Source: a virus
IMG/VR virus record: IMGVR_UViG_3300045988_154248
Strand: one strand, 5' to 3'
DNA: 64,000 nt
A program made the translations under genes and the position numbers. Shown in pieces: positions 20,048 through 57,409 of the stretch. Position 1 is the stretch's first letter, and every line of letters begins with the position of its first letter. Under the pieces are notes generated by a model that ran no database searches, was not told where the DNA came from, and worked only from the letters and a program-made list of their open reading frames with translations.

Positions 20048-20111
20048 GGAGTAGGAAACCAGAGAAGTCATGAGCTTTGGCATAGTAGACACTCGCACTA
20101 CTCTCCTACTC
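20048..20111 (+). promoter_or_regulatory. two-hairpin motif with GAAGTCATGAGC loop, copy B (upstream of the HNH gene)
   Basis: P1 GAGTAGGA/TCCTACTC. Hairpin 1 CCAGA-[GAAGTCATGAGC]-TTTGG. Hairpin 2 AGTAG-acactcgca-CTACT. Stems covary with copy A and the loop is identical. Confidence 0.5.
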
Positions 20112-20150
20112 TTTTTTAATTGTTATGCGAGTGGAAAGCGAGAAATAAAA

Positions 20151-38051: not shown

Positions 38052-38522
38052 GTGATTACAATCGCTAGATCTAAATTTAACGTAGATAAGGACACAAGCA
38101 AACGTACTTATAATAACATAACTTTTGATTCAATTTTAGAAATGAAATATTATCGAGATGTGCTTTGCCCATTAGTGGAGAGTGGCGATGTGGTGGATTA
38201 TGAATTACAGAAGCCATATGAGCTACAACCAAAGTTCAAACACGACGGAAAAACTGTTCAGCCAATAAAATATGTGGCTGATTTTTTTATTGTCTATAAG
38301 GATGGACATGAAGAAGTTATTGACACTAAGGGATGCCCTGACAGTGTTGCACTGATTAAAAGAAAACTATTCTGGTACTGCTATCCAGATGTTAACTATA
38401 AATGGATTTGTTATTCCAAGATCGACGGAGGATGGCAGGAATACGAGATCGTGAAAAAGAATCGGGCAGAAAGGAAACGTAAGAAAAAAGAAACTCAAGA
38501 GGTAAACAATGTACTCCAGTGA
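38052..38522 (+). CDS. DUF1064-type PD-(D/E)XK nuclease-like protein (putative resolvase)
   Basis: FDSILEMKYY....IKYVADFFIVYKDGHEEVIDTKG...LIKRKLF matches the DUF1064 pattern (F.S..E..Y / Y.pDF.v / DvKG / K.kl). Confidence 0.55.
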   Translation: MITIARSKFNVDKDTSKRTYNNITFDSILEMKYYRDVLCPLVESGDVVDYELQKPYELQPKFKHDGKTVQPIKYVADFFIVYKDGHEEVIDTKGCPDSVALIKRKLFWYCYPDVNYKWICYSKIDGGWQEYEIVKKNRAERKRKKKETQEVNNVLQ

Positions 38523-39877: not shown

Positions 39878-42718
39878 ATGCCAAAACAACATACAATTAA
39901 CCTCGAAGCTGTTATAAAAGCTGCACTGGATAAAAATAGCGAAAAAATAATCGATGATTTTGAGAAGAAAATCACTGAACCAAAAGAGATTAATATCAAA
40001 ACAGATAAAGCATCTAAACAGGTTAAGAAGCTGTCTGATGAGATTGAAAAAGAACAAAAGAAACATACTCAAACGTCTAGAAAAAGAAATAAAACTAAAA
40101 CAGCTACTGAACAAAGTACTCCAAAAAACGCAGATAAGTATGTACAATCAACAATATATGATAAAAAAGGACGTCCATCTACTTCTCATTCGTATACGTA
40201 TGCTGATGGAAAACAACAATCTTATAACAAGAATGGTAAGTTAACATCTGAGAAGCAGACCGTTGTTGATCTTCAAAAAGCATATTCTCAGTTAAATAAA
40301 GACGTAACAGAATATTATTCATTAAAGACAAAAGAAGCAAAAGGCAAAGTAGCCACAGAGGATAAACAGTATGTTAAAGGTCGGATTTCTGATTTAGTTA
40401 ATGAAATGTCTGCAAACCGAAAATATATTGCAGATGTAAAAAAGCAAGGTTTTTACAATGATGAATTGGAGCAAAAAGCTTTTAATCATTTTCGTAGAAA
40501 AGCTAATGGCTACAACACGTATGTCGATGAGAAAAATGCTACAATCAAAGCTTATGGAAATGATGACAATACTGCTATTCGTCAGGGACAGCGTTCGAAA
40601 CAACTAAGTAATTATGCTGGACAATCCACAGATGCAATTGAAAGAGCAAGAACGCTTGATACAACTATAACAGGTTTGGAAAAAGAATTATCAAACCTTG
40701 TTTCTTCTGGCGCATCAATGGATCAAATTAAGTCAAAATTTGATGAATGCACTTCTGCTGGTAAAGAATTTAAAAATGTCATGACCCTAGTCAATAGCAC
40801 TATGGAGAAAACATCTAAAAAAGATACCGTTGTTGGAGATTCAAATGCCGCAAAGCTTCAAAATGCCATTGATAAAAAAGTAGCTCAAGCAAAAACACTT
40901 GTATCAGATAGTTCTATAAAACAATTTGACGCAAAAATTGAAAAGATTAAATCTCAGTACGCTGGACAAGATGGTTCTGCAGACGTTTTATCATCTTTAG
41001 AAAAAACAGTGAATACCATACATGACAAACAGGCTAGTATAAAAGCAGAATTAGCAAAAGGATCTTCTGGAAATTTAACACAAATTGCTTCGGATGCTGA
41101 TATTTTGAATGCAAAGCTTAATGAAGTTGAAACTACCGCGAAAACGCTTGGAACTTCACTTTCAAAAAATCTAGATGGTACCACACTTCAGAGAACTATT
41201 GATAAAATTGATAATCTTGTAAAAAATTCCGACGGTTTTGCAAGCAAATCGCAATTAGAAAAATTAAAAACTCTACGAGATTCTTATACTAATAGTGATT
41301 CTGGAATTACAAAAGCTGTCAACTATGATAATTCTAAAATTATTTCTGGCATCGAGCAGGAAATTAATGCTCGTAAAAAATTAGCAGAAGCTCAGAAAGA
41401 ATTGCAAACTGGTACATATTCTGCGAATGAAGCCAATTATAAAAATGCTCTTTCCAAATATGAAGGGCAAACTTCTGAATCTCTAACTCGTGCAAGAGAA
41501 AGTTTAAAACAATTCAAAGAGATCCGTGAAGACTTTGAAAAGTCTATGAAAGACATTAAGGTTTCTGATCTTAGTGACGAAGAGTTTGAACGTTTAAGTA
41601 AGAATCTTCAGAATATGACTGAAGAGGAAGAAAAATATAAGACAGCGATGAAACAGGTCAAGGCAGAGGAAACTGCTACTCTAGCACCTGGTGTCGCCCT
41701 TCGTGCGTCAAACGAGATGCAGTCTTATATTAACAACAACAGCAAGGCATGGAAGAAATATAAGGCACAACTCGAAGAAGTTCGTGATGCCTATAAAAAT
41801 GTAACAACAGAAGGACAAAAGTTAGAAGTTGACGCTAAAGCTAGGGATTTGAAAGCAAAAATTTCTGCTGATGGATTAACAGGTGCAAGTTTTTGGCAAG
41901 ATACAAAACGTGCTGTTAATCAAATTGCTCAATTCACTGGAATTTACGGCATGTTGCAGAATGTCGTTATGGAAATTCCATCAAAGGTTGTTTCTAATGT
42001 AAAGGAAATTAATGATGCTCAAATTGAATTAGCAAAAGTTGCAAGTGATGCATCGGAGAGTCAATTAAGTCAGTACTGGGATAAGGCTGCTGAAAGTGCC
42101 AAGAAATATGGTGCTACAGTTAGTGATGTAATTAGCAGTACTGCGGATTGGAAACGTCTCGGAGCTTCTCTTGATGACGCAAAAGAATTGTCTGACATGA
42201 CTACTCTTCTGCAACGTGTCGGAGATAACATGACCCAGGAAACATCCTCTTCTGGTCTAATTAGTGCATTGAAAGGTTTTCAACTAAAAGCAGATCAAGC
42301 ACAACATATCGTAGATGTGGCAAATGAGGTAGCCAATACGCAGCCTATTGATACAGCAGGTATTTTTGAAGCAATTGAAAGATCTGCATCATCTCTAAAA
42401 GCCGCTGGCAATACGTATGAACAGGGTGTTGCGCTTGCCAGTGCAGCGAATAGTGTAATTCAAAATCCGGAAAAAATCGGGACAGCACTAAAAACGATCT
42501 CAATGCGCATAAGAAGCGCCGAAACAGATCTTGAAGAAGCCGGTCTTGACACTGAAGGAATGGTAACTTCTACTGCCAAGCTTCGAAAAGAAATGCTTGC
42601 ACTTAGTGGCGTAGATATTCTGAAAGACAAAGATACTTTTAAGTCTACTTATCAAATTCTTGATGAGTTAGCAAATAAATGGTCTGATTTAACAGACATC
42701 CAGCAGGCAGACTACACT
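39878..42718 (+). CDS. tail tape measure protein, exon 1 of 4 (3' boundary approximate, 42713-42729)
   Basis: Long alpha-helical, Ala/Lys/Ser-rich protein containing the conserved TMP core (...ILDELANKWSDLTDIQQA). The frame then runs into an intron-encoded tail and a stop at 42745. Confidence 0.7.
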
Positions 42719-43109
42719 TGCCTGTATGTACAGAAATGTGCATAAGAGAACACATCTAAAACCAGTAAAACCTAATGCTCTATCACTACAATATGGATGA
42801 AACATGCTGATATGAATGTAACGAAAGTAAAACAACGATAGAGATTCTATATGGTCAAAAGCCTAAGTAGAAATTTTGCTAATTATTTTAAATTAGAAAT
42901 GGTAGCTTGGTCGCAAAGTCCCGAATAGGGATGTGTCAAACGAGTACCCCAACGTCAGGGGGGAGAAATCCTTAATGTAGGGCTTAATCGCTAAATGAAG
43001 TCTGAAATGGTGTGACTGCTATTATTCTTAAGATGAATAATGTGGTTAAAAAGTACTCTGATCTTATATGCGAGTATAAGAATTATTATTGAAAAGAGAA
43101 TTTTATTTT

Positions 43110-43286
43110 ATGAAAAAATTTGATAAAGAATACAGTACTCAATACGTACCTGAGATGAAATATCTTCAATCAAAAGGTATTGAATATTCTTTTGTAAAAG
43201 ATATTCAAGGAGTGACGACATATAAATATACGAAGACACCAGAGTTATTTTTGGCTTTGGTGTCTTTTTATATGGAGAATAAATAA
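43110..43286 (+). CDS. small protein (58 aa), near-identical paralog of 8158-8337
   Basis: MKKFDKEYSTQYVPEMKYLQSKGIEYSFVKDIQGVTTYKYTKTPELFLALVSFYMENK. Part of the 210-bp repeat. Confidence 0.5.
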   Translation: MKKFDKEYSTQYVPEMKYLQSKGIEYSFVKDIQGVTTYKYTKTPELFLALVSFYMENK

Positions 43287-43322
43287 AAATACGAAAGGAT
43301 AAATAATAGGTGATAAATAATG
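43113..43322 (+). repeat. 210-bp direct repeat, copy B (1 mismatch to 8164-8373)
   Basis: Read directly; the single difference is gagaat vs gaaaat near the small-ORF stop. Confidence 0.9.
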
Positions 43323-44687
43323 GCAAGACAAAAATATACATATGAACAAGTTTACAATGAATTTGACAAAAGAGGTTATGATTTAGTATCAGAAGAATAC
43401 CATAACGTTTCTGAACATCTGGAATATATCTGCAGAAAACATAAAGACAAAGGTATCCAGAAGATAACATTTTCAAAACTTCATTCAGTGAATAGAGGTT
43501 GTTATTATTGTGGTAGAGAACGAACTGAAAATGCGCATGTGAAAGAATTAGATCCTGAATATGACAAACAATTGTGTGAATCGAAAAATTTTACATATAT
43601 TGGATCGAGAAAAGAAAATCATATTTTTGTTATTGATTTTATTTGTAATAATCATAAAGATCTTGGGATTCAGTCTATGCGTCGCAATAATATGAAAAGG
43701 CAAATTAAAGGATGTCAGTATTGTTCAGGGAAAAATTTACCAGAATGGTATATTATGAAAAAGAAAGATGAAGTAAATCCAAATATTATATTAATTGATC
43801 CATATAAAAACATGACTACAAGAATGAAATGTCTTTGCAAGAAACATAATTTTTTGCATAATAAAACCATGCAGGAAATTTTAGGTGGAAAAGGTTGCTA
43901 TTATTGTGGTCTTGAAAAACTAAGTAAACAAATGTTTTTGTCAGATGATCAAGTCAATGAAAATATTCATAAGAAAAATCCACATGTTGATGTTATAAAA
44001 TATAATGGCGCAGATATTATTTCTGAATGGTACTGTAATAAGCACCAAAAATCATTCAGTAAGTGCTATGTTACTTTGCTTTATTGTGATAGTGGATGCG
44101 ATGAATGTTATAAAGAATTAATTAGAGATAGATATGGTTTGGGTCAGTTAGAGTTTAAGAAAAAAATAAAAGAAATTCATCCAACATTACAAGTTATAGG
44201 CAAATATATAAATAATACCACTCCAGTAGATTTATATTGTCAAAAACATGATTGTTATTTTTCAACAGATCCATCTTCTGCATACAAAAGATTATCTTGT
44301 TGTCCTAAATCTAGAGTCACTTATAAAGAAGAATATGTATGTAGTTTGTTAGAAAAATGGGGTTATTCTATTACTAGACAAAAGAAATTTGATGACTGTA
44401 AGGATAAAAACGTTCTTCCGTTTGATTGTTATTTAAATGATTTTAATGTATTGGTGGAATATGATGGAGAAGGGCATTACAAACCTGTAATGTTTGGAGA
44501 AGAATCCTATGAAGAAGCCGTAGAAAAATTTCATTATACGCAAAAACATGATCAAATGAAGAATGAATATTGTGAAGTAAATAATATTCCTCTTATTAGA
44601 ATTCCTTATTATGAGTTCGATGATGTAGAATATTATCTATATGATAATTTATGTAAACTTGGTGTTATAGAAGAAAATTTTCAATAA
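43320..44687 (+). CDS. intron-encoded endonuclease: five tandem zinc-finger modules + Vsr-like/PD-(D/E)XK (EDxHD-type) C-terminal nuclease domain
   Basis: Five repeats of C..(K/N)H...(~15-20 aa)...C..C (e.g. YICRKHKDKGIQ..GCYYCG; FICNNHKDLGIQ..GCQYCSG). C-terminus VLPFDCYL..NVLVEYDGEGHYKP....QKHDQMKNEYC..NIPLIRIPY resembles Vsr/DUF559-type nucleases as in I-Bth0305I-like enzymes. Confidence 0.6.
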   Translation: MARQKYTYEQVYNEFDKRGYDLVSEEYHNVSEHLEYICRKHKDKGIQKITFSKLHSVNRGCYYCGRERTENAHVKELDPEYDKQLCESKNFTYIGSRKENHIFVIDFICNNHKDLGIQSMRRNNMKRQIKGCQYCSGKNLPEWYIMKKKDEVNPNIILIDPYKNMTTRMKCLCKKHNFLHNKTMQEILGGKGCYYCGLEKLSKQMFLSDDQVNENIHKKNPHVDVIKYNGADIISEWYCNKHQKSFSKCYVTLLYCDSGCDECYKELIRDRYGLGQLEFKKKIKEIHPTLQVIGKYINNTTPVDLYCQKHDCYFSTDPSSAYKRLSCCPKSRVTYKEEYVCSLLEKWGYSITRQKKFDDCKDKNVLPFDCYLNDFNVLVEYDGEGHYKPVMFGEESYEEAVEKFHYTQKHDQMKNEYCEVNNIPLIRIPYYEFDDVEYYLYDNLCKLGVIEENFQ

Positions 44688-44747
44688 TAATTGGTATAGC
44701 TTTAAGCGAGGGCTATATTAACAAAAGAAATATGAAGTGTAACTGAG

Positions 44748-45083
44748 TTGATCGCCGGTAAAAATCAAGGCAATGTAATGAGCGCCCTTATGAGCCAGTA
44801 CGATATTGCTCGTCAAGCGCTTAATACTGCTATGAATGATTCCGAAGGCTCCGCCGAAAGGGAATTAACTAATTACCAAAAGGGTATCGATTACAGTCTT
44901 GAAAGATTCAAGGCTACATTTCAAGAATTTTCAACTTCTGTTCTATCATCAGACACTTTCAAGGCTGTCATAGATAGCGGAACACAATTCTTAGAAATTC
45001 TTACTAAAATTACTGAAACACTTGGGCCACTTGGCACAGCTTTAACAGCACTTGGTGGTTTCAAATTTATATCAAGCATAGGT
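44748..45083 (+). CDS. tail tape measure protein, exon 2 of 4
   Basis: LIAGKNQGNVMSALMSQYD... continues the TMP core. Ends ...GGFKFISSIG (GGT 45081-45083) immediately before TAG. Confidence 0.65.
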
Positions 45084-45571
45084 TAGCCAAAATCCTGGCT
45101 ATAGTTTATCGTAAACTGGCTTATCAATGCGGAGAATATCATAGCAATGGAATGATATTTCAACGTAGGGAGATTAGTGCTTGTAAAAAATAAATAGAGG
45201 ATTAATTCGTCGAATTCGCTATTCTGCAATAATGCAGTGAAATGGATGAAAATTCCGCGAGAACGCACGAGCCAACCTGACTACGTATAGTAATATGTGA
45301 AACGTTAGCAGCAATTATGGAATTAAAGATAATATCATAATGACGAGCGAAACATATGAAAGTTAGGAGGAGTAGAGAGAACACCCTTCCTCCAGCGTAT
45401 ATAATGCCATAGTTTATATGCGTTGAATGCATGTTCCACGGTACGCGAAAGTTGTGATGCTTTCTCATCACACGCCAGCTTCTATCCTATTTCTGGCGTT
45501 GTTGGAAAATAATAGGAAAATTATATAGATATTTATCGTCAAATTACAATAACAATGGGGGATGTGAAAGT

Positions 45572-45688
45572 ATGGGATCTAAATCTAAATTAGTATTTGA
45601 AACATTAGAATCTGATCCAGATGGTATTATTGATGCAAGCGAGCAAATATTAAATGTTCAAGGTACTCAGTTTTTACCGTTTACCTGA
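45572..45688 (+). CDS. 38-aa ORF (putative)
   Basis: GGGGGATGTGAAAGT then ATG: MGSKSKLVFETLESDPDGIIDASEQILNVQGTQFLPFT. Followed by the hairpin GAGGAGAGT..ACTCTCCTC. Confidence 0.25.
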   Translation: MGSKSKLVFETLESDPDGIIDASEQILNVQGTQFLPFT

Positions 45689-45758
45689 AATGTGCCAGTA
45701 AACATTGCATTGAGGAGAGTATGGAAATACAACTTCCCAGCACTCTCCTCTTCCACTT

Positions 45759-45857
45759 CTATAACATTTTCAACAAAAATGCCACAAAGAATAACAACGC
45801 TATCGCCCACCAGGGCCATGGCTGCATACTTCTTCTGACTCTACCTTTCCATGACAT
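45759..45857 (-). CDS. 32-aa hydrophobic peptide (putative), last gene of the antisense operon
   Basis: MSWKGRVRRSMQPWPWWAIALLFFVAFLLKML. Lies downstream (- strand) of conserved-element copy 1. Confidence 0.2.
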   Translation of the reverse strand: MSWKGRVRRSMQPWPWWAIALLFFVAFLLKML

Positions 45858-45896
45858 ATCTTTTATTTTTTCCTTTGTCTAAAAATAAGTTTTAAT

Positions 45897-45939
45897 GAAA
45901 GCAGGTGATTATTATCAATATTCAGCAAACAGCAAACAA
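45897..45939 (+). repeat. conserved 37-nt element, copy 1 (with 6-nt in-frame insertion)
   Basis: GAAAGCAGGTGATTATTATCAAT[attcag]CAAACAGCAAACAA. Contains the GTG start of ORF 45905. Confidence 0.85.
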
Positions 45940-46228
45940 GATAGAAACAAGAATTGTGTCTTCAGATAAATTAAATTCACAAAATATGTCATATGTATAT
46001 ATTGATTCAGATAATCAAATATATGTACGAGAAGGAATACTGCAGAATGATATTGATATATTATCTGCTGTATTAATGCAAAGAAAAGTCGATAGTCGTA
46101 TTAAAAAAACATATTTTGATATTGTAGACTCATTGAAAACGAATCAAGTATCTAAAAATCAATTTGAGTCTCTATATAAGATGGTTCTTGTAAAATATTA
46201 TGGTAAGAATGAAGAAAGTACATTGTAG
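45905..46228 (+). CDS. hypothetical 107-aa protein, convergent partner of protease 1
   Basis: GTG start inside the conserved element. N-terminus MIIINIQQTANK. The 3' end overlaps the protease gene by 31 nt. Confidence 0.4.
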   Translation: MIIINIQQTANKIETRIVSSDKLNSQNMSYVYIDSDNQIYVREGILQNDIDILSAVLMQRKVDSRIKKTYFDIVDSLKTNQVSKNQFESLYKMVLVKYYGKNEESTL

Positions 46229-46866
46229 TTTTCGCATTCTCCAAGACCAACTTCTTTTTCTTTATATGAATAGCTTGATTGTTCAATCCCTACTAAATAA
46301 TATTGGCTATCACGATTAATAAATATCGGTGATCCGCTTGATCCACTAAAGCATTCCATATCCACAAGGAAACGTTCCAATCCATTAAATTTTGATTTTA
46401 GAGGTGTCGCAATAACGCCACTTCGAATAAGTGGAGTGATAAAATTATCAGACTGAAATGATAACGGATATCCAATCATTAACGCATATTCAATTGAAGA
46501 TATTGGAAAATCTTCCGTTATAATATCTTCTTTTGTAATCCAAGATATTTTTAGCTTTCCTACATATTCTGGTGAATCGATTAGATCATTTATTCCAATT
46601 ACTGCAACGTCATATTGTGGATGTAAATATGGTTGGATACGTATTTCATTGTTTAGAAGATTCACTTGATCGTTTTGCTCAATAGGGACAGAAAACAAAG
46701 CGTTTTTCATATTCTCAAATATATGCCTATTCGAGACTAATGCATAATTTTCTCGATTATTTGCATGGTATTTATAGAAAAATCCTGTACCAATTTTACA
46801 TTCATCATTTTCTTTTAATACAGTAATTTTTGTTACAGTATGAATCAAATTCTCTTTTGTAAGCAT
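46198..46866 (-). CDS. trypsin-like (S1/chymotrypsin-fold) serine protease 1
   Basis: Catalytic triad context: VSNRHIF (His), YDVAVIGI (Asp), FSGSSGSPIF (Ser). RBS TAAGGAGAAG on the - strand. No signal peptide. Confidence 0.7.
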   Translation of the reverse strand: MLTKENLIHTVTKITVLKENDECKIGTGFFYKYHANNRENYALVSNRHIFENMKNALFSVPIEQNDQVNLLNNEIRIQPYLHPQYDVAVIGINDLIDSPEYVGKLKISWITKEDIITEDFPISSIEYALMIGYPLSFQSDNFITPLIRSGVIATPLKSKFNGLERFLVDMECFSGSSGSPIFINRDSQYYLVGIEQSSYSYKEKEVGLGECENYNVLSSFLP

Positions 46867-46886
46867 ATTTTACTTCTCCTTAATTA

Positions 46887-46923
46887 GAAAGCAGGTGATT
46901 ATTATCAATCAAACAGCAAACAA
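46887..46923 (+). repeat. conserved 37-nt element, copy 2
   Basis: GAAAGCAGGTGATTATTATCAATCAAACAGCAAACAA. Contains the GTG start of ORF 46895. Confidence 0.85.
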
Positions 46924-47236
46924 AACAGATCATCAGGAATCTATACAAACAATACACACAATAGAATTAACCACTAATGAGTATAATACAATCAAATATT
47001 TTTTTGAAAATATGGAGTCTTTATATAACTATGGACTGATTGATAAGGAAATTGTCCCATATAAAATTTTCTCCAATGCAAAAAATCATTTTATGAAAAA
47101 GCCAAAAATTACAATTACTAATTTAAAAATGACAAAAGCTTCAGATACTATTACTCATCTAGTTTGTGGTGATCAAAGTGTTAAATCTGTTTATCAAATA
47201 GCTACTTCTCCGTCACAAGAGGATATTGTTCTCTAA
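46895..47236 (+). CDS. hypothetical 113-aa protein, convergent partner of protease 2
   Basis: GTG start inside the conserved element. N-terminus MIIINQTANK. The 3' end overlaps the protease gene by 35 nt. Confidence 0.4.
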   Translation: MIIINQTANKTDHQESIQTIHTIELTTNEYNTIKYFFENMESLYNYGLIDKEIVPYKIFSNAKNHFMKKPKITITNLKMTKASDTITHLVCGDQSVKSVYQIATSPSQEDIVL

Positions 47237-47936
47237 TAAAATCAAGTATATAAAACGCATATACTTCCTGAGAAAGACCAAGACTTTCTTCATACTTCTT
47301 TTCAAATTCGTCTGTAGTAATTTTAAGAGAACGTATTTTAGCAGAATGATGTATGCCAAGTAGTTTGTATTTTTCATTAACTTTGATATAAACTGGGCAT
47401 CCACTTAAACCTTCTTTGGTATTGGCATAAGTGAAGAATCCGTTTTGAAAGTTGAACTGAATAGATGATGCAGTATTTCCTTTAATAATAAAAGGATACG
47501 CTAAGATTGTGTACCCTAATGCTGCTTGATAGCCAACGAGATAGACATCTTCCAAATCATTAAAACTTGATCTGTCATCATTTAAAATAATGTCTGATTC
47601 TTCTATAAAATGAAAAATTATATTGTATTTATTCAAGGCCTTGATTATTGTATTTGTTATATCGACATAGGCGATATCAAGAGAAGGATGTTTTATAGGA
47701 GAGACAGTTATATTAAAAGTTATACCTGACATTTCTTCGTTTTCGTCTATAGTGGATATAACAAAAGATATATTCATAATATTTTTGTCAAAACAATGAC
47801 CGCAAGAACAAAGGAAATATGATTCTCCTTGAGATGTTGCTAATTTTATGATAAAACCAGTAAAAGAGTGTCTTGGTTCTTCAGTATTATCAGCAATAAA
47901 TACTGTTGTATATTTCAAGTCATTTACACTAATCAT
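47202..47936 (-). CDS. trypsin-like serine protease 2 (diverged paralog)
   Basis: SCGHCF (His), LDIAYVDI (Asp), EGLSGCPVY (GxSGxP Ser). RBS AGAGAGGAAAA. Follows the zinc-ribbon gene by 33 nt. Confidence 0.6.
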   Translation of the reverse strand: MISVNDLKYTTVFIADNTEEPRHSFTGFIIKLATSQGESYFLCSCGHCFDKNIMNISFVISTIDENEEMSGITFNITVSPIKHPSLDIAYVDITNTIIKALNKYNIIFHFIEESDIILNDDRSSFNDLEDVYLVGYQAALGYTILAYPFIIKGNTASSIQFNFQNGFFTYANTKEGLSGCPVYIKVNEKYKLLGIHHSAKIRSLKITTDEFEKKYEESLGLSQEVYAFYILDFIREQYPLVTEK

Positions 47937-47969
47937 ATCAATTTTCCTCTCTTATGTTTTATGGTTATC

Positions 47970-48533
47970 TTAAAAATCATACCCACAATTCTTACAGTGA
48001 AATTGTTTGCCGATTTTCTCTGATGCAATGCCAAACATATTTGTAGACAGCATACGTTTGAATATACCGATTTTCTCGATATTTGTAGATTGACACACTG
48101 GACAGTGAGGTTGGTTGGCAGATGTTGGATTTTGATAGTTGTTCTTTTCTCTATATTGTTTTAACCGCTCTTCTTCTTCATGACGTCTTTTGTTATATGC
48201 ATTCTCATCAAATTGATTTTCCACATTAAGATCTTTTAGGTCATTAAGAATGCTTTCTTTGTCACACCCGTGATGATTTAACAAATCTACCATTTCATAC
48301 TTAGTTTGTATAAATGGAACGCGACAATATTTACAGTTAACTCTTCTACAATGACCAGCATAATTAATTTCATGAACCCCACATCTCGGACAGATAAAAC
48401 CTCTAGTAAAATCATTAATATTATTTTCTTCTAGATATTTTTTGATTGGTCGTCCACAATGAGGACAAGTTTCAGCATAGATGCTAACTTCTCTATCACA
48501 ATCTGGGCAATATATCAAATTTTGAAATCCCAT
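47970..48533 (-). CDS. multi-zinc-ribbon protein
   Basis: Start at the internal Met (GGAGG then 7 nt then ATG on the - strand). Four CxxC pairs: CPDCD..CPHCG, CPRCG..CKYC, CPVCQ..CKNCG. - strand promoter-like TATAAT/TGATATAAT motifs at 48560-48610. Confidence 0.55.
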   Translation of the reverse strand: MGFQNLIYCPDCDREVSIYAETCPHCGRPIKKYLEENNINDFTRGFICPRCGVHEINYAGHCRRVNCKYCRVPFIQTKYEMVDLLNHHGCDKESILNDLKDLNVENQFDENAYNKRRHEEEERLKQYREKNNYQNPTSANQPHCPVCQSTNIEKIGIFKRMLSTNMFGIASEKIGKQFHCKNCGYDF

Positions 48534-48620
48534 ATTACATCCTCCAATGCACATTAAATTAATTACATTATATCATAATTATTATATAAATCCAACATTA
48601 TACAATAATTTTATTCGCAG

Positions 48621-51600
48621 TTAAAAAATTTAGGTGATTTATTTGGTAGTTTTGGAGAATTAAACTTACTGAGAAATAAATATGGAAAAAACGCAACATT
48701 TGATACATTAAGCAGTACACTACAACAGTCTTTTAACGAGTCTTTTAAAGTTGGGAAAAATGGAATTAGTGAATTTTCCACAGAGCAAATTAAAACTAAA
48801 GCATCTGTAATGGGATTAAATGATGCGTTGACAAAACAAGCATTATCTCTTGCGAATGACGCTGGTTTATATCAAAAAGCTGCGGCAGGTAATCTTACAT
48901 TTAGTAAGGCTATAGAATTAAATATAAATAATGCAAGCGATTTAGTTGATGCCTTGATGAGTAGTAATTCTGAAGTCTTAAAAAAATATAAAGATAACGA
49001 TATTGCTGATATGATAGCTAATTCAGGTGAAAAAGGCAGCGCGGCATATAATGAGTTTGTTAAAGATCTCATCGATAAAAATCAAGATTTAGGGGACTCA
49101 ATCGTTGAATTAGCACCCAAAGTAGAAACTACAAAATCCGCATTTTCTGGTTTATCAAACTATTTTAAAGGACTTTTTGCTACATTTACAAATCCGATTT
49201 TCCTTTTAACGACAGCCGTTACCGTAGGGGTTGCGGCATGGCAAGGCTATAACCAATCTGTCCAGGAATCCATCCAGCACACGAAAGACTCAATAGCAGA
49301 AATAGAGGAACGTAATAAGTCTATTGACGACAATATCAGTAAAGCACAGGAACTAAGGGATTCCCTTGATTCCGGTACTCTTACAGAGCAAGAAGCTTAT
49401 AACACGAAGAGTCAATTGCTTGATATCCAAAGTCAATTATCTGATTCTTATGGAGAACAGGCGGATGGAATTGATCTGGTAAATGGTAAGCTGGATGAGC
49501 AGATCGAGAAGATGCAGCAGCTCAAAGTTGAAAATGCGAAAAGCTGGCTGAATGATTCGGATAATGAGAAGAATTACGAAAAAGCTAAGAAGAAGATGAC
49601 CAAAGATGATTATGAGTCATTCTTTGGAAATACACCTACTTTATCTTTACTTGGTAATGCACCAGAAAAAGCCGACTATACAAATTCAGACGTATATAAA
49701 GATGCACTGAAACGTTATCAAAATAGCAAATCCCAGATCGAAGAAATCCAGAAAGCAGCAGAAAAAGCCGGACTAAAACAGTATACAAGTACAAGCACAG
49801 GTCAGTTCCAGCTTGGTTTTGAAAATGAAACAGTAACAGGAGCAGATGAAAAATTAAACTCCTTCCTCGCTACTGTTAAAGAACTGAAACGGCAGTTTGA
49901 TGATGAGGGTAAAAATACTGATTACTTTGATAATATCATCAGTTCCGCCGAAGATGCCGAATCTTCTTATAAGGATATTTTAGACAAGCATCAAGAAGTA
50001 TATCAAGAGTATCTGAAAAACTCCATGCTTGCAGAGGGTTATGGTAATAATAAGCCAGCCACAGTATACCAGCAATATGCGGATGCTGTAGATAAATATA
50101 ATGAAGCCCTGCAAAGTGGAGATACATCTAAGGTCGAAGCAGCGAAAACTGCATTAGATGGCGTAAAAGATTCCGTAGATAATATTGTCAGTAGAGATTC
50201 CGGAAAAAAATACAAGGAACTGTTTGATGAGATTGCAGATGGTATTGACACAGCATCCGAAAAAACTTATGAGTTCAAAGAACGCTTATCCGGTAAAGGT
50301 ACAGATAAATTAAACAATACTGTGCTTTCTAAGCTCAAAGAGTTGAAGAATTACACAGATATTGACCTCAAGAGTATCAATCTTGATACAAGTGATGTTG
50401 TTGCTGGTAAAGATGCTCTACGCATGGCAGTAAACGAAGCAATGGATCTTGACATTGTTTCCGATGATTCTGCTGAAAGTGTGGCAAAAGTTGTTGATCT
50501 CTTAACGGATATGGGTATGACGGCAACCGTATCCATGAATCAAGTGGATGATTCCTTCTCAGAAGTCAATACTACCATTCAGCAAGCACAAGCAAATCTG
50601 GAAACGCTCAAGACGATTATGTCTGAATCTGTTTCGGGAGCAGGTATTTCTGCCGATAATGTGAAAGCATTTAAAGAAATGTTCGGAGATGATGCTGCGC
50701 GTGCTTTGGAGAAAACCGCAGACGGTTACCATATCAATCGTGAAGAGCTTGCAAAATTACAGGCGCAACAGTCAGAAATGAACAAAGCGGATTATCTTTC
50801 CGGTTTGGCAGATCAGCAGGAAGCTCTGAGACAAATCGAGGAGCAGATCGCCGATGCAATGGTAAAAGGTCAAGATGTCAGCGGCTTACAGGCACAGCGC
50901 GAAGGTATTTTGGATAATATTTCCTCTCTGGAGGATCTAGCATATCAGTATCAAACTGCTACTTCTGCTTATCAACAATGGCAGGATGCTATGTCCGGTG
51001 GTGAAGAAGGTAATATGTATGATTCCATCCAGGGTAACATGGAATCCATCAAAGATCTCTACGACAAAGGACTTGTGGGAGAAAACAAATTCCGAGAGTT
51101 TGTTGACCTTATGTCCAATAAGGATCTGACCAATGCCAGTGTGGATGAAATCGTTGCGGCTTATGAAGAATCCTATCCGAAGATGGAACGTTATTTTACA
51201 GAAGGACAGGAAGGATGTCAAGCATTCTTACAAGATATATCCAACCTTAATTCTGAATGGGCGCACATGAATGAAGATGGTTCATGGGAGATTAATTTCG
51301 GAGTCGGAAACGATCAAGAGATTGCGGATGCATTAGGAATTGATGTGGAAGCTGTACAATCAGTACTAAGAAAACTGCATGATTTTGGCTTTGACATCGA
51401 CCTCGATCAGCCGGTTAAATCTTTGGAACAACTAAAGACAGAAGCTCAATCAGCCAAAGAAGCTCTTGATGGAATGGGTGAAACTTCTCTTGATAGCATC
51501 AATTTGGACACAGATTCATTCAGTGAAATCACAGATGATATTGACAAGGTTAAGGAATATATTCAGCAGATCAATGATGCTGATTTGGAGCCAGAAGTTC

Positions 51601-54487
51601 GGACAGAGAGACTGGAGCAAGCCAATAATATTCTTGATTATCTGGTACAGAAACAGCAAGAGGCTGGACATACAGATATTATCATTGATGCGGATGCAAG
51701 TTCTGTCGATCAAAAGATCTCTGATCTGAAGAGTCAACTGGAGCAATTCAGAAACGAAGACGGTACGATTCCTGTTAATGCCGATACACAAGATGCTGTC
51801 AACAGTCTGCAATCTTTGTATGCTACGAAGCAAAATCTTGAAAATACACCAGCTATTCTACAGGTTGATACTTCGCAGGTTGACGGAGAACTGGGCAATG
51901 CGATCGGAAAATTACAGGAATATCAGAATGCTGTAGAGATTCTGAATGCACAGAACACGATGAAAACACAGGGCATCGACATTGATACCACAGATGCACA
52001 GCAGAAAGTACAACAGTTGGCAGGACAGCTACAGAATCTTGATGCTGATACGACAGCAAAGTTAGGTCTTGACGATACTGATTTTCAGTCGAAACTTTCT
52101 AATATTGCTACTCATCCGATTGATGTAGGAATAGGGGTAAATCTTGATCCGAATGCTCTTGCCGACGTCTCTGCAAAGATTTCTGGAATTACGCCAGAAT
52201 TACTTGTAAAAGCTGGTGTAAACGAAGAGGCGATTGTAAATTATACGCCGAAAGATAAGGACGCTACGGTCAAATACAAAGTTGACCATAGTGCGATTGA
52301 CAGTTATGATCCGGAAGACAAAAATGCTACGGTTACTTACGGTGTGGTTGTTTCTGGACTTGAAAATCTACCAGGTAATAAAACAAGAAGTCTGACTTAC
52401 AATATTAAGACTAATGGTACGGCTCCAAAAGTAAATGGTACGGCACATGCTATAGGAACAGCTCATGCGGCAGGTACTGCAAGCCGTAATTGGGGGCTTG
52501 CTCACAATGAACCACATGCGCTTGTAAATGAATTGAAACCAGAAGCAATCGTTCGGGATGGTAAGGCGTTTATCTTGAATGGCGGAGATCCTACTTTTGC
52601 AAATCTGAAGAAAGATGATGTTGTATTCAACGGTGATCAGACGGAGCAGTTGCTTGAACATGGTTATGTTACCGGTTCTCATGCACAACTTGCAGGTGGT
52701 GGTTATTCTTTAGGTAGTGCGTTCTCTGGAGGATCGGGAAGATTTAATGTTGGAAGTTCTGGAACAAAAGCTGATTCTTCCACATGGGAAGACGAAAAGA
52801 AACAGAATAATACCAGCCCTAACTCATCTTCTGGTAGCAGTAGTCGTAAAAACAGTGGATCATCTTCTGGTGGTTCAACTCGATCACCTTCCGGTGGAAG
52901 TTCTGGTGGCTCTTCATCCTCTTCTGATGCAAAGTCAACAACAGAAGAAGTAGTTGATTTTATCAAAATTATGCTCTCCCGTCTGTCCCGTATGACAGAG
53001 CTTGCAACTAATGCAATCGAACGTGCAGTAGGTCTTGCAAATAAACAAGCAGCCGCAGCAGATGCAATCGGTAAAGCAACGAATGAAATGGTTCATAACC
53101 AACGTGCAGCAGATGCTTATTTGGCAAAAGCTAATAGCATTAGTTTGTCTGATGCTTATAAGAACCAGATCATGAATGGTAGTATTAATATAGATACCAT
53201 CACAGATGAAGATCTGAAAAAGAAAATTAGTGACTTCCAAAGCTATTATGAATCTTACTTATCTGCAAGAGACAATGCGTTAAAGCTCGAAGATAAAATT
53301 ACCGAACTCGCTGAAAAACGTCTGGAAATCATTGAAAAAGAATATGATGCGATCGTAGACATCAACGATGCGATAAAAACCGTAGCCGATTCCAAAATTT
53401 CTCTCAACGATGCGCTGGGCGTGGCGATTGACAATCCAGACAATTATGCTAATCTGAATAATTCAATCAAAGCACAGGAAGATACTTATAATCAGCTGAC
53501 GAAAAAGCTTTCCGATTATCAGAAAGAGATGGAGTCTCAACTTTCCAGCGGCTTGATGCAAAAGGGTTCTGATGCCTATAATTCTGCGCTAAAAAATATT
53601 CAAGATTTTACAGCTAAGATTTATGATGCTTCTACCAGCCTTCTTGAACTACGGGATAAATTGGATCAGATTAAAATTGATACTATCCAGAATGTAATTG
53701 ACGGAATCAAACGTAATTCGGATATTACGGAGAAATATATTTCTTACCTGCAATCTCAGAATCGTGATGTGCCAGAGAATCTATACACTGACCGTATAGA
53801 TAATAATAACGCTCAGGTACAGCAGAATCTAAAGCAGATGGAAATATACCGGAAGAAACAGGCGGTTCTTGATGTCAATTCTAAATCGTATCAAGATTAT
53901 GCAGAAAAGATTCAAACGCTAAAAGAAAATACTTTGGAACTGATTACGGACAATGAATCTCTTCAAGATAGTATCTATGAGCTACGATTTAAGCCACTTG
54001 ACGATGCTATCCAGAAGTACAGTGACCTTGAAGATGAGCTGAAAAGTTTCCGTGACCTTCTGAATGATGATGCATTCCTTGATAAGCAAGGACGTATCAC
54101 GGAAGATGGATTGGCACAGATTGCTCTCTTACAACAGAGTATTGGTACGGCAAAACAAAAAATTGCAGATTATACCACGGGCCTGCAAAAACTAAAAGAG
54201 TCTTATGACAATGGGGTTATTTCCTTAACGGAATATAATGACAAGTCAAAAGATTACCGTGAAGGTATTCAAGGTTCGATTGCAGATGTGAAATCATATC
54301 AGGACAGTCTGGTTGATCTGTATAAGAATGCTATGAGTACAGAGGTTGATTATCTAACCTCTATTGTAACGAAGAGACAAGAGGCGCTTCAAGCAAAAGC
54401 TGACTATTATTCCTATGATAAATCAATATCCAAAAAGAGCAATGATATTAATGTTATTAAAGCACAAATCATGGCTTTAGAAGGGGT
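48621..54487 (+). CDS. tail tape measure protein, exon 3 of 4 (5' boundary 48618 or 48621)
   Basis: ~1955 codons of helical TMP-like sequence, with the GTAHAIGTAHAAGTA..LVNELKPEAIVRDGKAFIL motif typical of Bacillota TMPs and a Ser/Gly-rich linker. Ends ...IMALEG-V at U 54487. Confidence 0.7.
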
Positions 54488-55075
54488 GAAATATTTGCTC
54501 CTATAAAATCTATTTAATTGCGGGAAGTCCCCATAAGGTTTAATTGGCTACAACGTAACCAGAAACGGTAGGCGTGAATGCGGTAGAGTTTTAAACTTAC
54601 AGTCCATTATTAGATAGAAACCATAAAAATAATTAAACTAGGGATAACCGAGTGTGCAAGTCACTCAGACGCAGCGAACTTCCTAAGTCAGAAATGATAT
54701 GGAAGACGTTCAGAGACTAACCCATATTGGGTGGCGCAATGCCTTAATGGAAGACTGCAAGCGATTGGCGGTCGAAAAAATATAGACTATTTGAATATTA
54801 AGTGATATTATAATTTTGAGGTGTGTTCTTTCCTATAATTAGTGATGAACAGATAGAACACAGTGTAGATACAACCAAAGAGACTCTCGAACACACATAT
54901 GAGAGAAGTAAGTAGAAGAAAAGACAACGAAATAGAACAATAAAGAAGATTGTGCAAGTTTGTAGAAGTTATACGAACCATCGTTCGCATGTTTGTGAAT
55001 TTTGCGAATAGATTTTTCTCTTGGGATTGCATATAATAAAGTCAAGAAAACCGTAAAGTTTTCTTATAATTAGTG

Positions 55076-55173
55076 GTTACGAAGCCATAAAATCGTATTA
55101 ATAGATGTTACGAAGCATGTAAAAAATCGTATTAATAGATGTTACGAAGCATGTAAAAAATCGTATTAATAGC
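55076..55173 (+). ncRNA. toxI: ToxI/AntiQ-like antitoxin RNA: ~2.9 tandem repeats of 31-34 nt
   Basis: GTTACGAAGCcATAAAATCGTATTAATAGAT / GTTACGAAGCATGTAAAAAATCGTATTAATAGAT / GTTACGAAGCATGTAAAAAATCGTATTAATAG. TATAAT (55065-55070) lies 5 nt upstream of the first repeat. Confidence 0.75.
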
Positions 55174-55197
55174 GGAGCTGGTTACAGCTCCTTTATT
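55174..55197 (+). terminator. rho-independent terminator between the antitoxin repeats and toxN
   Basis: GGAGCTG-gtta-CAGCTCC followed by TTTATT. Same placement as in characterised ToxIN/AbiQ loci. Confidence 0.7.
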
Positions 55198-55213
55198 ACT
55201 ATTAGGAGAAAAT

Positions 55214-55774
55214 ATGAAGTGGATTAATGTAGACGAAAAGTATACAGATTATCTTAGAAGTCACGAAGGAAGAATTCCTATGACCAATTATGGCACAGAT
55301 AAATACAAGCCATTTTTCGGTGTGCTGTTTGAAACAAATGGTTTGTATTATATTACACAGGTATCACATCCACGGGAAAAACATAAACGCTTGACACAAC
55401 AAAAAGATTTTTACAAAATATTTGATCCAGATAATACAACAAGATTAATAGCGGTTGTTAATCTTAATTACATGTTCCCAATTCCAAAAGAATGTACAAG
55501 TGCATTTGTTAAAAAGAATATAGGAACATATCGTACATTTAAATCAGAGAAAGCAAAAAGTCAATATATTAATTTGCTTGATAAAGAATTAAAAGTAATC
55601 AATAAAATGGATTTAGGAACAAAAGCATTGCAGTTGTATCATTTAAAATATACAGATCCTAACAGTACCGTTTCAAAAAGATGTATTGATTTTAAGGATA
55701 TGGAAAAATGGGCAAAGTTATATATTGAAACGTTAAATAATACAGAAACTACAGAACAACCCAAGGAGCAGTAA
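55214..55774 (+). CDS. toxN: ToxN/AbiQ-family type III toxin endoribonuclease
   Basis: MKWINVDEKYTDYLRSHEGRIP...YKPFFGVLFETNGLYYITQVSHPREKH...IAVVNLNYMFPIP...RCIDFKDME follows the ToxN/AbiQ pattern (F..v...Y..YL / KP..GV..e..g..Y.a.lsSPK.KH / i.l..MiPv / C.nF..lE). RBS AGGAGAAAAT. Confidence 0.8.
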   Translation: MKWINVDEKYTDYLRSHEGRIPMTNYGTDKYKPFFGVLFETNGLYYITQVSHPREKHKRLTQQKDFYKIFDPDNTTRLIAVVNLNYMFPIPKECTSAFVKKNIGTYRTFKSEKAKSQYINLLDKELKVINKMDLGTKALQLYHLKYTDPNSTVSKRCIDFKDMEKWAKLYIETLNNTETTEQPKEQ

Positions 55775-55790
55775 ATCTACTGCTCTTTTC
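55766..55790 (+). terminator. rho-independent terminator after toxN
   Basis: GAGCAGTA-aatc-TACTGCTC followed by TTTTC; overlaps the toxN stop codon. Confidence 0.6.
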
Positions 55791-55917
55791 TTATACCTCA
55801 AATCTTAATTACAATCCCTCAAATAAAATTCAAATAGAAGATATAGTCCCATGCCATACGAAAGTATGGGGAGCAGTTATGCTCTTGTCCACGTAGCGAG
55901 TGGATGAAAAGAAAATG

Positions 55918-57409
55918 AAATAACCTCGATGCTCAATCTCAAGTTAAGAAATTGAAGCAACAGCTTTCAGAAGCAGAGCAAGATTTAGCCGATACTAAGC
56001 GTGACCATGCAAATGATATGCAGTCTCAAGGTTACGATAAGCTCAGTGAAGATCTGAAAACTTCTCTTGATGATACCGAGTACGAAATTAGTCATAATGC
56101 TGACAAACAGCTTGAGATCATCAATTCTATGCTTGACAAAGCCGTGTCCTCTTATCAAGAAGCATATGGCAAAATCAACTCTATCATCAAAAATACTGGC
56201 TGGGTAGGTAGTACGGATTTTAACAATACCCAGTCTGATCTAAGCACAGAGACAGGTGTTAAGAATCAAAATTCCAACGCATCACAGTCTCAGTCCAGTG
56301 CAAATAAAAATCCATCCAGTACCGCATCTGGTACAAAAACTGATCCAATCAACAGTAATTCAAAAGCAAACAGTGATCTTGCGGATCAATTAGTTAAACC
56401 GGAAGATACAACGAATCGTAAGGTTGCGGAACTAAAGGTGTCTCCTACTTCTACTACACTGAAAGAGGGTAAATCCACAAGTATTACTGCTACAATCAGA
56501 CCGAACGATGCAGCTAATAAGACTCTTGCTTGGAAATCAAGTAATGAATCCATTGCTACTGTATCCAATGGTACGGTAAAAGCAAAGAAAGCAGGTTCCT
56601 GCACGATCACTGCTACTACTACTGACGGCAGCGGTTTATCTGCGAAAGTATCTGTTAAAGTCAATGCGAAACCAAAACCACCAAAGCCACAGCCGAAACC
56701 ACAACCAGCAAAAACTGGTGGAGATGGAATTCCTCGTGTTGGCGATGTCGTAACGTTCACAGGATCTTATTATAATGATTCCTGGGGTATGGCTCCAAAA
56801 GGTAGTAGATTTTCCGGTCAGCCTGGTGCTGTTGTTATTGACTCTTACACGGCTAGGGAATATGGCGGAAATGGACGTACTACTGGTGATTTTAAGATCC
56901 ATATCAAGAGTGCGCATGATCCTAATTATAGTGATCTTGGATGGGTGCGTCTTAGCCAGATTAGTGGTTATGAAAAGGGTACGGATCGTATTCATGGTGA
57001 TCAGCTTGTATGGACAAATGAAAATAAAGACACCAAACATCATGGCGTTTCAGAATTAATCTATCGCAAGAAAGATGGTGCTGTCCTTACACCTGTTCAA
57101 GATGGAGATTCTATTCTACCAGCAGATTTTGTAAGTAATTTGATTAAATTAAGTGCAATTGATCCTAAAGAATTCGGTATGAATGTAAGTACTACGCCAA
57201 ATCTGGTACAGACGAACATTCCTCAAAATATCAGCAATGTTGGAAATGTAACGGTAAAAAATCATTATGATTCATTACTCACAGTTGAAGGTAATGTTGA
57301 TAGGGATGCTCTGCCTGGATTACAGGAAATTCTTGAAAAGTCTTATCAGTATACAAGTAAACAGATCGTGAAAGATGCAAGAAAAGTTGGTATTAGACCA
57401 TCAAGATGA
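55918..57409 (+). CDS. tail tape measure protein, exon 4 of 4 (Big_2 Ig-like + SH3-like C-terminal domains)
   Basis: In-frame continuation NNLDAQSQVKKLKQQL... Contains the Big_2-like VAELKVSPTSTTLKEGKSTSITATIRPNDAANKTLAWKSSNESIATVS..GTVKAKKAGSCTITATT, a PKPPKPQPKPQP linker and a beta-rich C-terminal domain. Confidence 0.7.

Follow-up and report, generated by a model that had tools for sequence, protein, structure and literature searches.

A giant phage tape-measure gene with three predicted group I-type introns carrying endonuclease, putative toxin-antitoxin and candidate defence genes

The IMG/VR virus record IMGVR_UViG_3300045988_154248 supplies a stretch of 64,000 nucleotides (nt), hereafter the window, in which the region 39878-57409 most probably (roughly 80% in our estimate) holds a single 3,513-codon tape-measure gene into which three self-splicing introns of group I type are inserted. 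The phage in this reading is large, of the siphovirus type, and infects gut Firmicutes, its hosts being Lachnospiraceae or Ruminococcus-like bacteria. Four long open reading frames (ORFs) lie on the plus strand (39878-42745, 44748-45086, 48810-54506 and 55952-57409) with three insertions between them, just where an earlier note on this DNA had placed them. With the splice sites revised here, the exons join into a 10,542-nt ORF of 3,513 codons free of internal stops, in agreement with the gene of about 3500 codons that the note had foreseen. The note had also remarked that each insertion brings a different type of cargo, which holds; the identities of the cargo genes are added by the present analysis. 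The exons are:
39878-42708, plus strand: tape-measure exon 1, residues 1-943 and two bases of codon 944
44735-45083, plus strand: tape-measure exon 2, SVTELIAGKNQGN...FISSIG
48618-54487, plus strand: tape-measure exon 3, QLKNLGDLFG...AQIMALEG and two bases
55918-57409, plus strand: tape-measure exon 4, one base and then NNLDAQSQ..., with a Big_2 immunoglobulin (Ig)-like domain

Protein families were searched in Pfam, PHROG, PADLOC and the Protein Data Bank (PDB), and repeats with Tandem Repeats Finder. Residues 739-945 of exon 1 match the TP901-type core PF10145 (PhageMin_Tail) of Pfam at 6e-21, the exon matches PHROG 4211, tail length tape measure protein, at 1.5e-37, and tblastn pairs it with tape-measure proteins annotated in large siphoviruses of Bacillus and Lactococcus. 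Besides this core, the gene has the tail-module position and the very long, largely helical product of a tape measure. A Shine-Dalgarno-like AAAGGTGGTG precedes the ATG of exon 1, and the Big_2 match in exon 4 reaches 1.9e-15. Extrapolated solely from its length by the rule of 1.5 Å per residue, a tape measure of 3,513 residues would correspond to a tail of ~0.5 micrometres. The whole region had no match among GenBank phages in a megablast search.

The joined protein was mapped onto 80 related viral loci (designated by L numbers), and the claim of a single gene is supported because many of these relatives run straight through each junction. In the comparison with intron-less homologues that the earlier note had proposed, single ORFs of 2,777-3,636 codons cover all three junctions: the whole protein is uninterrupted in L055 (3,636 codons), L019 (3,256), L016 (2,893) and L009 (2,777), and these ORFs match the regions flanking every junction. 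A protein search with the tape-measure segment across junctions 1 and 2 returned hundreds of homologues from gut metagenomes, Ruminococcus and Bariatricus, about 60% identical and uninterrupted (...WSDLTDIQQASVTELIAGKRQGN...). Alignments to intron-less relatives are free of gaps at junction 1 (..DIQQA/SVTELIAGK.., the slash marking the junction) and at junction 3 (..ALEG/VNN..), the latter with L084, which lacks an intron there, and with other relatives; the coordinates given earlier for junction 3 stand exactly as written. Junction 2 falls in a poorly conserved hydrophobic stretch, across which the relatives' ORFs are continuous. A TGA (44733-35) lies directly 5' of exon 2, and the exon 3 frame, open from 48609, has neither a Shine-Dalgarno sequence nor any ATG, GTG or TTG until 48810. 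The earlier remark that exon 3 runs 67 codons without a start is thus right for the window, and does not extend to most relatives, which have TTG or ATG there. The predicted joined peptides are DIQQASVTELIAGK at junction 1, which homologues show without a break, FISSIGQLK at junction 2 and IMALEGVNNLDAQSQVK at junction 3; the corresponding ligated exons would read ...CAGCAGGC/AAGUGUAAC..., ...AGCAUAGGU/CAGUUAAAA... (in the earlier note's alternative, ...GGU/UUAAAA...) and ...GAAGGGGU/AAAUAACCU....

The same open frame bears on whether this is instead a decaying tail gene of a defective prophage, put out of action by mobile elements, with inactive introns and residual exon frames. Such decay would suit the chromosomal relative L002, one of the relatives that occur as prophages, in which the downstream part is much shorter and Tn7-like genes lie nearby, and it would suit the first intron, which lacks a U-G wobble at its 5' splice site. 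Against it, 10.5 kilobases (kb) of AT-rich exon sequence are open in one frame with exact junctions, many viral contigs of 90-210 kb keep the same architecture at 85-97% identity, and compensatory changes, detailed below, show selection on ribozyme helices and guide pairings. Because of the long open AT-rich frame and this ongoing compensatory evolution, we consider a decayed pseudogene very improbable.

The third insertion has the anatomy of a canonical group I intron:
54488-55917, plus strand: intron 3, 1,430 nt, canonical group I (IA-like), cargo in the P8 loop

In P1, the pairing of the guide with the 5' exon, AGGGGU (54482-87) pairs with GCUCCU (54497-502) and ends in the U-G wobble. This helix covaries among relatives with the wobble kept, in the forms AGGUGU/GCACCU (L101), UCGGU/GCCGA (L095), GGGGU/GCCCU (L103) and CUUGGU/GCUAAG (L163). 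In P10, the pairing with the 3' exon, AAAUA (55918-22) pairs with UAUUU (54492-96) immediately 5' of the P1 guide, and the intron ends in G55917. Elements P, Q, R and S lie at 54516, 54666, 54708 and 55839, S being AGAUAUAGUCC. A P8 of 10 base pairs, CUAUUUGAAU (54787-96) with AUUCAAAUAG (55828-37), brackets the cargo and covaries in L095 and L103; P4, a P7.2-like hairpin and the P9 hairpins covary across lineages by inspection. The earlier note's description of junction 3 as textbook group I is therefore borne out by P1, P10, the P/Q/R/S elements and covariation, its match to the Rfam family model being partial, as discussed below. An S-like decoy, AAAAAUAUAGACUAUUUG (54777-54794), overlaps the 5' strand of P8. 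The decoy's 27-nt stretch recurs inside the introns of L096 (5590-5616), L097 (8328-8354) and L099 (7140-7166), which have a different 5' half, an endonuclease and a MazF-like gene; this recurrence suggests cassette exchange by recombination at P8.

The P8 loop of intron 3 appears, from its sequence features, to hold a complete ToxIN/AbiQ type III toxin-antitoxin cassette:
55076-55172, plus strand: ToxI/antiQ-like repeat array, 34-nt unit in 2.9 copies (Tandem Repeats Finder)
55174-55191, plus strand: intrinsic terminator between the array and toxN, a 7-base-pair stem with 5 G-C pairs followed by TTTATT
55214-55774, plus strand: ToxN/AbiQ-family endoribonuclease toxin, 186 amino acids (aa), full-length match to Pfam PF13958 at 5.8e-43

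The repeat array scores 137-168 with 92-100% matches, and its unit holds an A-rich GUAAAAAAUCG motif. The 186-aa protein also matches AbiQ in PADLOC (5.5e-21) and the B. thuringiensis ToxN structure 4ATO in the PDB (3.5e-8), and its gene is preceded by the Shine-Dalgarno sequence TAGGAG. Both hallmarks of a type III system are present: a ToxN/AbiQ-family protein, and upstream on the same strand a repeat array that a terminator separates from the toxin gene.

This cassette is one of several that occupy the same loop. More than 20 relatives have an intron at junction 3 with the same ribozyme flanks and other cargo, namely a PBECR4 nuclease (2e-20), an NYN-domain protein (1e-13), a PemK/MazF-like protein (3e-5), a 188-aa protein without a Pfam match, or a homing endonuclease. 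No tandem repeats were found in the relatives' non-ToxN cargo at junction 3, so these are not type III systems. In L163 a ToxN homologue (P0162, 79% identical) sits with its own array and terminator in a homologous intron located elsewhere in the tape-measure gene (near residue 2585), where P1 is adapted and the U-G wobble kept. Since L163 carries the homologous pair, the association of this intron with ToxIN is old and recurrent rather than a one-off. The ~250 nt between the P8 5' strand and the ToxI repeats (54818-55070) are 89-93% identical in L085 (6468-7050) and L100 (8327-8622), whose cargo, the unrelated 188-aa protein, matches nothing in Pfam and is not accompanied by repeats; the shared segment may be a leader or promoter region common to these cargoes.

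The second insertion is longer and begins with a structured RNA:
45084-48617, plus strand: intron 2, 3,534 nt, group I-like, with multi-gene, mostly antisense cargo
45084-45480, plus strand: ribozyme-like 5' domain of intron 2, ~400 nt, with covariation in 10 diverged copies

At the DNA level, these ~400 nt 3' of exon 2 are conserved in relatives that share just ~60% identity in the flanking protein. A profile search found the domain in ~60 loci, and all copies whose flanks could be mapped lie at this one tape-measure site; blastn of the RNA domain against GenBank phages gave no match. The structure was derived from an alignment of 10 diverged copies with RNAalifold, to which a P7-like pseudoknot was added by hand. 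RNAalifold predicts 86 pairs, 53 of them with compensatory changes. Over the 91 modelled pairs, 94.2% of cells are paired, compared with 79.0% in shuffled alignments (0 of 500 shuffles reach the observed value) and 35-46% when the partners are slid; pairs with double changes number 55, as against 29.5 in shuffles (again 0 of 500) and 5-18 after sliding. All recognisable core helices lie within the first ~400 nt, and a P3/P7 pseudoknot is 100% paired.

The splice sites of intron 2 have the same anatomy as those of intron 3. In P1, exon AGGU and the first intron U pair with GGCUU (45118-22); all 10 diverged copies have the U-G wobble at the splice site, and the pair at exon position -2 covaries (G-C or A-U). 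A first P1 model, with a splice-site U-A and a distal guide, was replaced by this one, with the proximal GGCUU and the U-G wobble, when more sequences were included. In P10, the 3' exon CAGUU (48618-22) pairs with AACUG (45114-18), adjacent on the 5' side to the P1 guide. The 3' end was compared in eight lineages, where P10 takes four forms:
Window, L002, L035 and L036: 3' exon CAGUU, guide AACUG
L140 and L125: 3' exon UCAUU, guide AAUGA
L076: 3' exon CGAUU, guide AAUCG
L008 and L033: 3' exon UCACU, guide AGUGA

When L008 and L033 were searched for a G followed by the complement of their own guide, the hit fell at the exact start of downstream ORFs of at least 1,000 codons (SLK(K/D)IGELSD). 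The terminal G is found directly before the 3' exon in 8 of 8 lineages. Because P10 covaries across the four variants, we place the 3' splice site at G48617 (...FISSIG-Q-LKNLGD...). The earlier note had U45083 right and its G48620 3 nt too far downstream; the revised site adds a Q. Covariation is also seen in a further exon-binding helix, formed by the guide GUGCUU (45177-82) and exon positions -10 to -5. An apparent correspondence between the homologues' terminal KNLD and the window's KNLGD was dismissed as an alignment artefact: SSIG corresponds to KNLD, and those homologues are interrupted at the same site. Where the earlier note had reserved the label of textbook group I for junction 3, junction 2 too shows P1, P10 and terminal-G anatomy, unseen by Rfam.

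The 3' end of intron 2 is also where a split gene would show itself, one that is never spliced, at least at junction 2, and whose exon 3 is translated alone from a terminal TTG or ATG, the conserved RNA after exon 2 serving the inserted element, e.g. in regulation or mobility. An in-frame TTG or ATG stands at or one codon before the junction in L001, L040, L042, L043, L060, L035 and L036, and also in L002, L140, L125, L014, L008 and L033; gene callers start proteins there (for example MQLKNLGD...), and in many copies the inserted element supplies a stop right after exon 2. However, the last three bases of the intron (48615-48617 in the window) are TCG in the window and AAG in L076, and only the final G is universal. 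In no lineage does a Shine-Dalgarno sequence precede exon 3, whereas other genes there have strong ones, and L006 and P0028 have CAG, with no stop, after exon 2. A P1 with an invariant wobble and a covarying P10 would be purposeless in a gene that is not spliced, and the uninterrupted relatives make one protein. We therefore regard a split gene as unlikely.

It is less probable still that intron 2 is something other than group I, either a new class of self-splicing ribozyme or an RNA-guided DNA insertion element with an RNA that would pair to the flanks of its target. Its RNA matches no Rfam group I or group II family at E<=10 in three lineages, its second exon-binding helix is reminiscent of group II exon-binding sites, its cargo is very large and antisense, and a zinc-ribbon protein is conserved with it. 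Against these stand the U-G pair at the exon terminus in 10 of 10 copies and the terminal G in 8 of 8 lineages, P1 and P10 guides adjacent as in a group I internal guide sequence, a possible group I helix order with the fully paired P3/P7 pseudoknot, a minimal copy in L014 that lacks recombinase, transposase and reverse transcriptase, and the absence of group II ends (GUGYG...AY) and of domain V. Because intron 2 combines the group I helix order with no Rfam match in three lineages, we call it group I-like and assign it, from its modelled structure, to a putative undescribed subclass.

Other kinds of element were rejected for the insertions. A group II intron does not fit, as the introns begin with AGACU, UAGCC and GAAAU and end in G, with no Rfam group II match, no domain V and no reverse transcriptase; inteins are incompatible with the in-frame stops, and translational bypass with gaps that are kilobases long. 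An IS110-type bridge-RNA element was discarded for lack of a recombinase or transposase, and an IStron because no tnpA or tnpB occurs among the cargo ORFs of the 12 intron 2 copies compared.

In the window, the cargo of intron 2 spans 3.1 kb and is mostly antisense:
46198-46866, minus strand: PDC-S45-like trypsin-fold protease, 222 aa, PADLOC PDC-S45 at 3.2e-40
47202-47936, minus strand: second PDC-S45-like protease, 244 aa, PADLOC PDC-S45 at 7.6e-19
47970-48554, minus strand: zinc-ribbon protein adjoining the 3' end of intron 2, likely start at 48533 after GGAGGA

The 222-aa protease has weaker PADLOC matches to the LmuA, RT-protease and Avs2 protease domains and a Pfam match to Trypsin_2 (1.3e-6); by homology, both PDC-S45-like proteases are candidate defence genes. 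Two small plus-strand ORFs (45905-46228 and 46895-47236), for which Pfam, PADLOC and PHROG gave no family match, each overlap the 3' end of one protease gene tail to tail. Their N-termini are related (MIIINIQQTANK and MIIINQTANK, with the common pattern MIIIN..QTANK), and the small ORF and the protease together look like a duplicated two-gene module. A homologue of the zinc-ribbon protein is present in every examined copy of intron 2 and is the sole ORF of the minimal 837-nt intron of L014; its C-terminal CPxC...CxxC module is invariant, and the annotations of its homologues are uninformative. Near the zinc-ribbon gene the minus strand has a promoter-like site (48624-48597), so that the islet apparently has its own promoter. 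Across copies the islet varies from 0.4 to 6.3 kb, in relatives reaching 3-7 kb, and is mostly on the opposite strand; relatives carry a SocA/Panacea antitoxin with a partner, DUF3800, IrrE-like metallopeptidases, a GNAT acetyltransferase, DUF5067 and a MazF-like gene.

The first insertion appears, as far as its sequence can tell, to be a conventional mobile intron:
42709-44734, plus strand: intron 1, 2,026 nt, divergent group I, ORFs in the P8 loop
43320-44687, plus strand: homing-endonuclease gene, 455 aa, zinc-finger repeats and a C-terminal nuclease-like module

Exon CAGGC (42704-08) pairs with GCCUG (42720-24) in P1, and the 3' exon AAGUGU (44735-40) pairs with ACACUU (42714-19) in P10, so that one contiguous guide, ACACUU-GCCUG (ACACUUGCCUG), engages both exon ends; the last base of the intron is G44734, and Q-, R- and S-like elements lie at 42853, 43009 and 44693. 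The first residues of exon 2, S-V-T-E, are those of the homologues, which sets the exon start at 44735 (or 44736). The earlier note had correctly seen that junction 1 cuts the tape-measure core; its start of exon 2 has to be moved, the four codons SVTE upstream of the TTG at 44748 being added. A copy of intron 1 without ORFs and with identical ends occurs in L042 (10349-10810) and L043, where the 7-nt loop AATTATTAT-CTGACTC-AATAATAATT replaces window positions 43090-44682. By this ORF-less variant, the ORFs of intron 1 occupy a hairpin at the periphery, flanked by the R-like and the S-like element and bracketed by the stem 43081-89/44683-92, which we assign provisionally as P8. The 455-aa protein matches PHROG 559 'HNH endonuclease' (3e-51), PHROG 9084 'homing endonuclease' (3e-22) and PHROG 7140 'intron encoded nuclease' (9e-7); compared with solved structures, both as sequence alone and as a profile, it gave nothing significant. 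Its homologues sit in the junction 3 intron of L095, L098, L103 and L104. A 65-aa ORF (43089-43286, plus strand) begins the cargo block 5' of the endonuclease gene, with no family match in PADLOC or PHROG.

Several points weigh against the reading of one gene with three group I-type introns. The first is family recognition. At the gathering threshold of the Rfam group I model (RF00028, Intron_gpI, 50 bits), no intron match was obtained in the window and seven relatives. Below it, the model, which the earlier note had named for all three insertions, finds intron 3 in part (19.7 bits, E=0.28); intron 1 has no RF00028 match, and neither has intron 2 at E<=10 in the window, L140 or L014. Because P8 is broken up by 1 kb of cargo, the alignment of intron 3 ends at the S-like decoy, and an intron related to intron 1 at another site of L042 (10958-11487) reaches 24.1 bits (E=0.001). 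Second, the 5' splice-site pair of intron 1 is C42708-G and not the near-universal U-G wobble; in an alternative placement A42709 pairs with U, and the sister intron in L042 has U-A at this position. Third, the fit of the intron 2 helices to the group I order P3-P4-P5(a,b)-P6-P7-P3'-P8-P7' is a manual assignment, and a systematic search for a conserved helix closing the intron 2 cargo loop yielded AT-rich chance helices only. The candidates GUUGGA/UCCAAC (window) and AUUGGCA/UGCCAAU (L002) were not borne out by that search. Intron 2 would moreover need transcription and folding across 3.1 kb of antisense genes, and its last three bases are an in-frame TTG or ATG in 6 of 8 lineages, as separate translation of exon 3 would have it; the terminal TTG or ATG may serve unspliced RNA as a fallback start or reflect a constraint of the ribozyme. 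Exact-pattern scans for an intron-less allele or a spliced complementary DNA of the close relatives found none at junction 2 (both candidate junctions, in metagenome contigs) and none at junction 3 (in viral contigs). Finally, we infer splicing of the three introns from the sequence, and the functions of the cargo genes are assigned by homology.

If the introns act as predicted, late transcription would read through the whole gene with its introns, and each intron would fold and align its exons on the internal guide, P1 holding the 5' exon and P10 the 3' exon. Guanosine-initiated transesterification ending at the terminal G would then remove the intron and restore the reading frame; in intron 2, the 3' splice site would lie just past the accessory-gene islet. 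Each intron would thus offer its cargo genes a harmless landing place within an essential gene, and the cargo would most likely serve abortive infection or exclusion of competing phages in the prophage state, addiction that stabilises the intron, or both.

Relatives show that the tape-measure gene family is an intron hotspot. Their tape-measure core is interrupted at at least five further sites, near residues 762, 818, 857, 872 and 994 in window numbering, by inserts of 0.3-2.1 kb (the relatives include L005, L013, L032, L033, L037, L042, L060, L066, L075 and L082); at site 818, textbook R and S elements occur in the 310-nt insert of L037 (4235-4544). In the chromosomal relative L002 (Ruminococcus sp. 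JBGKMG010000009.1, a 957-kb contig), a much shorter tape-measure remnant (18209-20959) is followed on the opposite strand by Tn7-like genes, for a TnsB-like Mu transposase and for TniB; these may have cut the tail module short there.

Elsewhere in the window, a full-length GOLLD RNA (6105-6562, plus strand; Rfam RF02032, 193 bits, E=7e-53) lies directly 5' of a transfer RNA (tRNA) gene (6591-6664), with four more tRNA genes further on (14888-14959; 19014-19315); by this match the phage carries a giant ornate non-coding RNA besides its intron ribozymes. Two genes 5' of the tape-measure gene, a 156-aa ORF (38052-38522, plus strand) matches PHROG 190 'Holliday junction resolvase' at 1e-40. The match covers only the C-terminal part of that family (profile positions 180-311 of 338), and the ORF could represent a further endonuclease or one piece of a split gene.

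Multiple introns in a tape-measure gene are a known kind, having been described in 2008: in Bacillus cereus-group prophages this gene has up to three sites with group I introns (IVS1-IVS3; subclass IA1 or IA2), changes in P1 and P10 retarget related introns, and some carry a homing endonuclease (Tourasse and Kolsto 2008, PMC2504315). Like them, the introns of the present family of relatives occupy several sites, the three of the window and at least five further ones, with adapted guides. Unlike the Bacillus introns with their homing endonucleases, complete or not, those described here carry putative toxin-antitoxin or candidate defence cargo and multi-gene antisense cargo; the host gene has ~1,200 codons in the Bacillus prophages compared with 3,513 here, and the intron 2 ribozyme, unlike those introns, is not recognisably IA1 or IA2.

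The cassette in intron 3 resembles the abortive-infection systems ToxIN of Pectobacterium and Bacillus thuringiensis and AbiQ-antiQ of Lactococcus in its repeat array of ~35-nt units, its terminator and its ToxN/AbiQ-family protein. The AbiQ antitoxin has 2.8 copies of a 35-nt unit, which the array of 2.9 x 34 nt resembles. Known ToxIN and AbiQ systems, however, are free-standing loci on plasmids or chromosomes, whereas this one lies inside the group I P8 loop of a phage structural gene. Its antitoxin repeats, unlike those of free-standing ToxIN, are also part of what would be the excised intron RNA, and its activity is predicted from sequence.

For intron 2, the closest architectural analogue is found in the IStrons (CdISt1 of Clostridioides difficile and BcISt1 of Bacillus cereus), which combine a ~400-nt 5' ribozyme with long foreign genes and a distal 3' splice site. 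The layout of intron 2 is the same. IStron cargo, however, is a same-strand tnpA or tnpB of IS200/IS605, whereas intron 2 has no transposase and its cargo is variable, largely antisense and of the defence or toxin-antitoxin type; again in contrast to IStrons, the copies of intron 2 lie at one site in one gene wherever the flanks were mapped. BcISt1 is mentioned in the work on the Bacillus introns (PMC2504315).

Intron 1 and the endonuclease-bearing versions of the junction 3 intron match the introns of T4 td, nrdB and sunY, of the SPO1 DNA polymerase gene and of Twort. Classical phage group I introns have an endonuclease ORF in a peripheral loop and interrupt an essential phage gene. Unlike in those, the endonuclease here is a zinc-finger-repeat protein whose nuclease-like module has no solved-structure relative detectable by sequence, and the 5' splice site of intron 1 has a C-G pair.

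Searches of one full-text literature collection yielded neither a group I intron that houses a toxin-antitoxin or defence system nor a phage intron whose cargo is an antisense islet of several genes. What is new is the cargo and the intron 2 ribozyme; multiple tape-measure introns were already known. A broader and more tentative proposal, to which we give somewhat less than even odds, is that the group I introns of giant tape-measure genes in phages of gut Firmicutes serve toxin and defence genes both as vehicles and as places where they can safely land: in one lineage a type III toxin-antitoxin system would have replaced the endonuclease, the lineage would have moved with its cargo from site to site and from phage to phage, and a second, new group I-like subclass, distinguished by its second exon-binding helix, would splice across a hypervariable antisense islet of 3-7 kb.

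To our knowledge, bacterial and phage group I introns have been thought to carry nothing or a homing endonuclease. Here one structural gene combines an intron with a predicted endonuclease, one with a putative RNA antitoxin and RNase toxin, and one with a multi-gene islet of candidate defence or toxin-antitoxin genes, and relatives exchange cargo inside fixed ribozyme loops, which suggests that phage introns ferry toxin and candidate defence genes. The RNA of intron 2 is a large, well-supported structured RNA missed by current family models and well suited to biochemical study as a ribozyme. Provided that the introns splice, phages could by means of self-splicing RNA place accessory genes in an essential gene free of cost. 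A second strategy of intron persistence, by addiction or by benefit to the host, would then stand alongside endonuclease homing; its toxins might render an intron addictive or serve a prophage as a weapon against phage competitors, and such introns would be a new type of location for defence-system searches.

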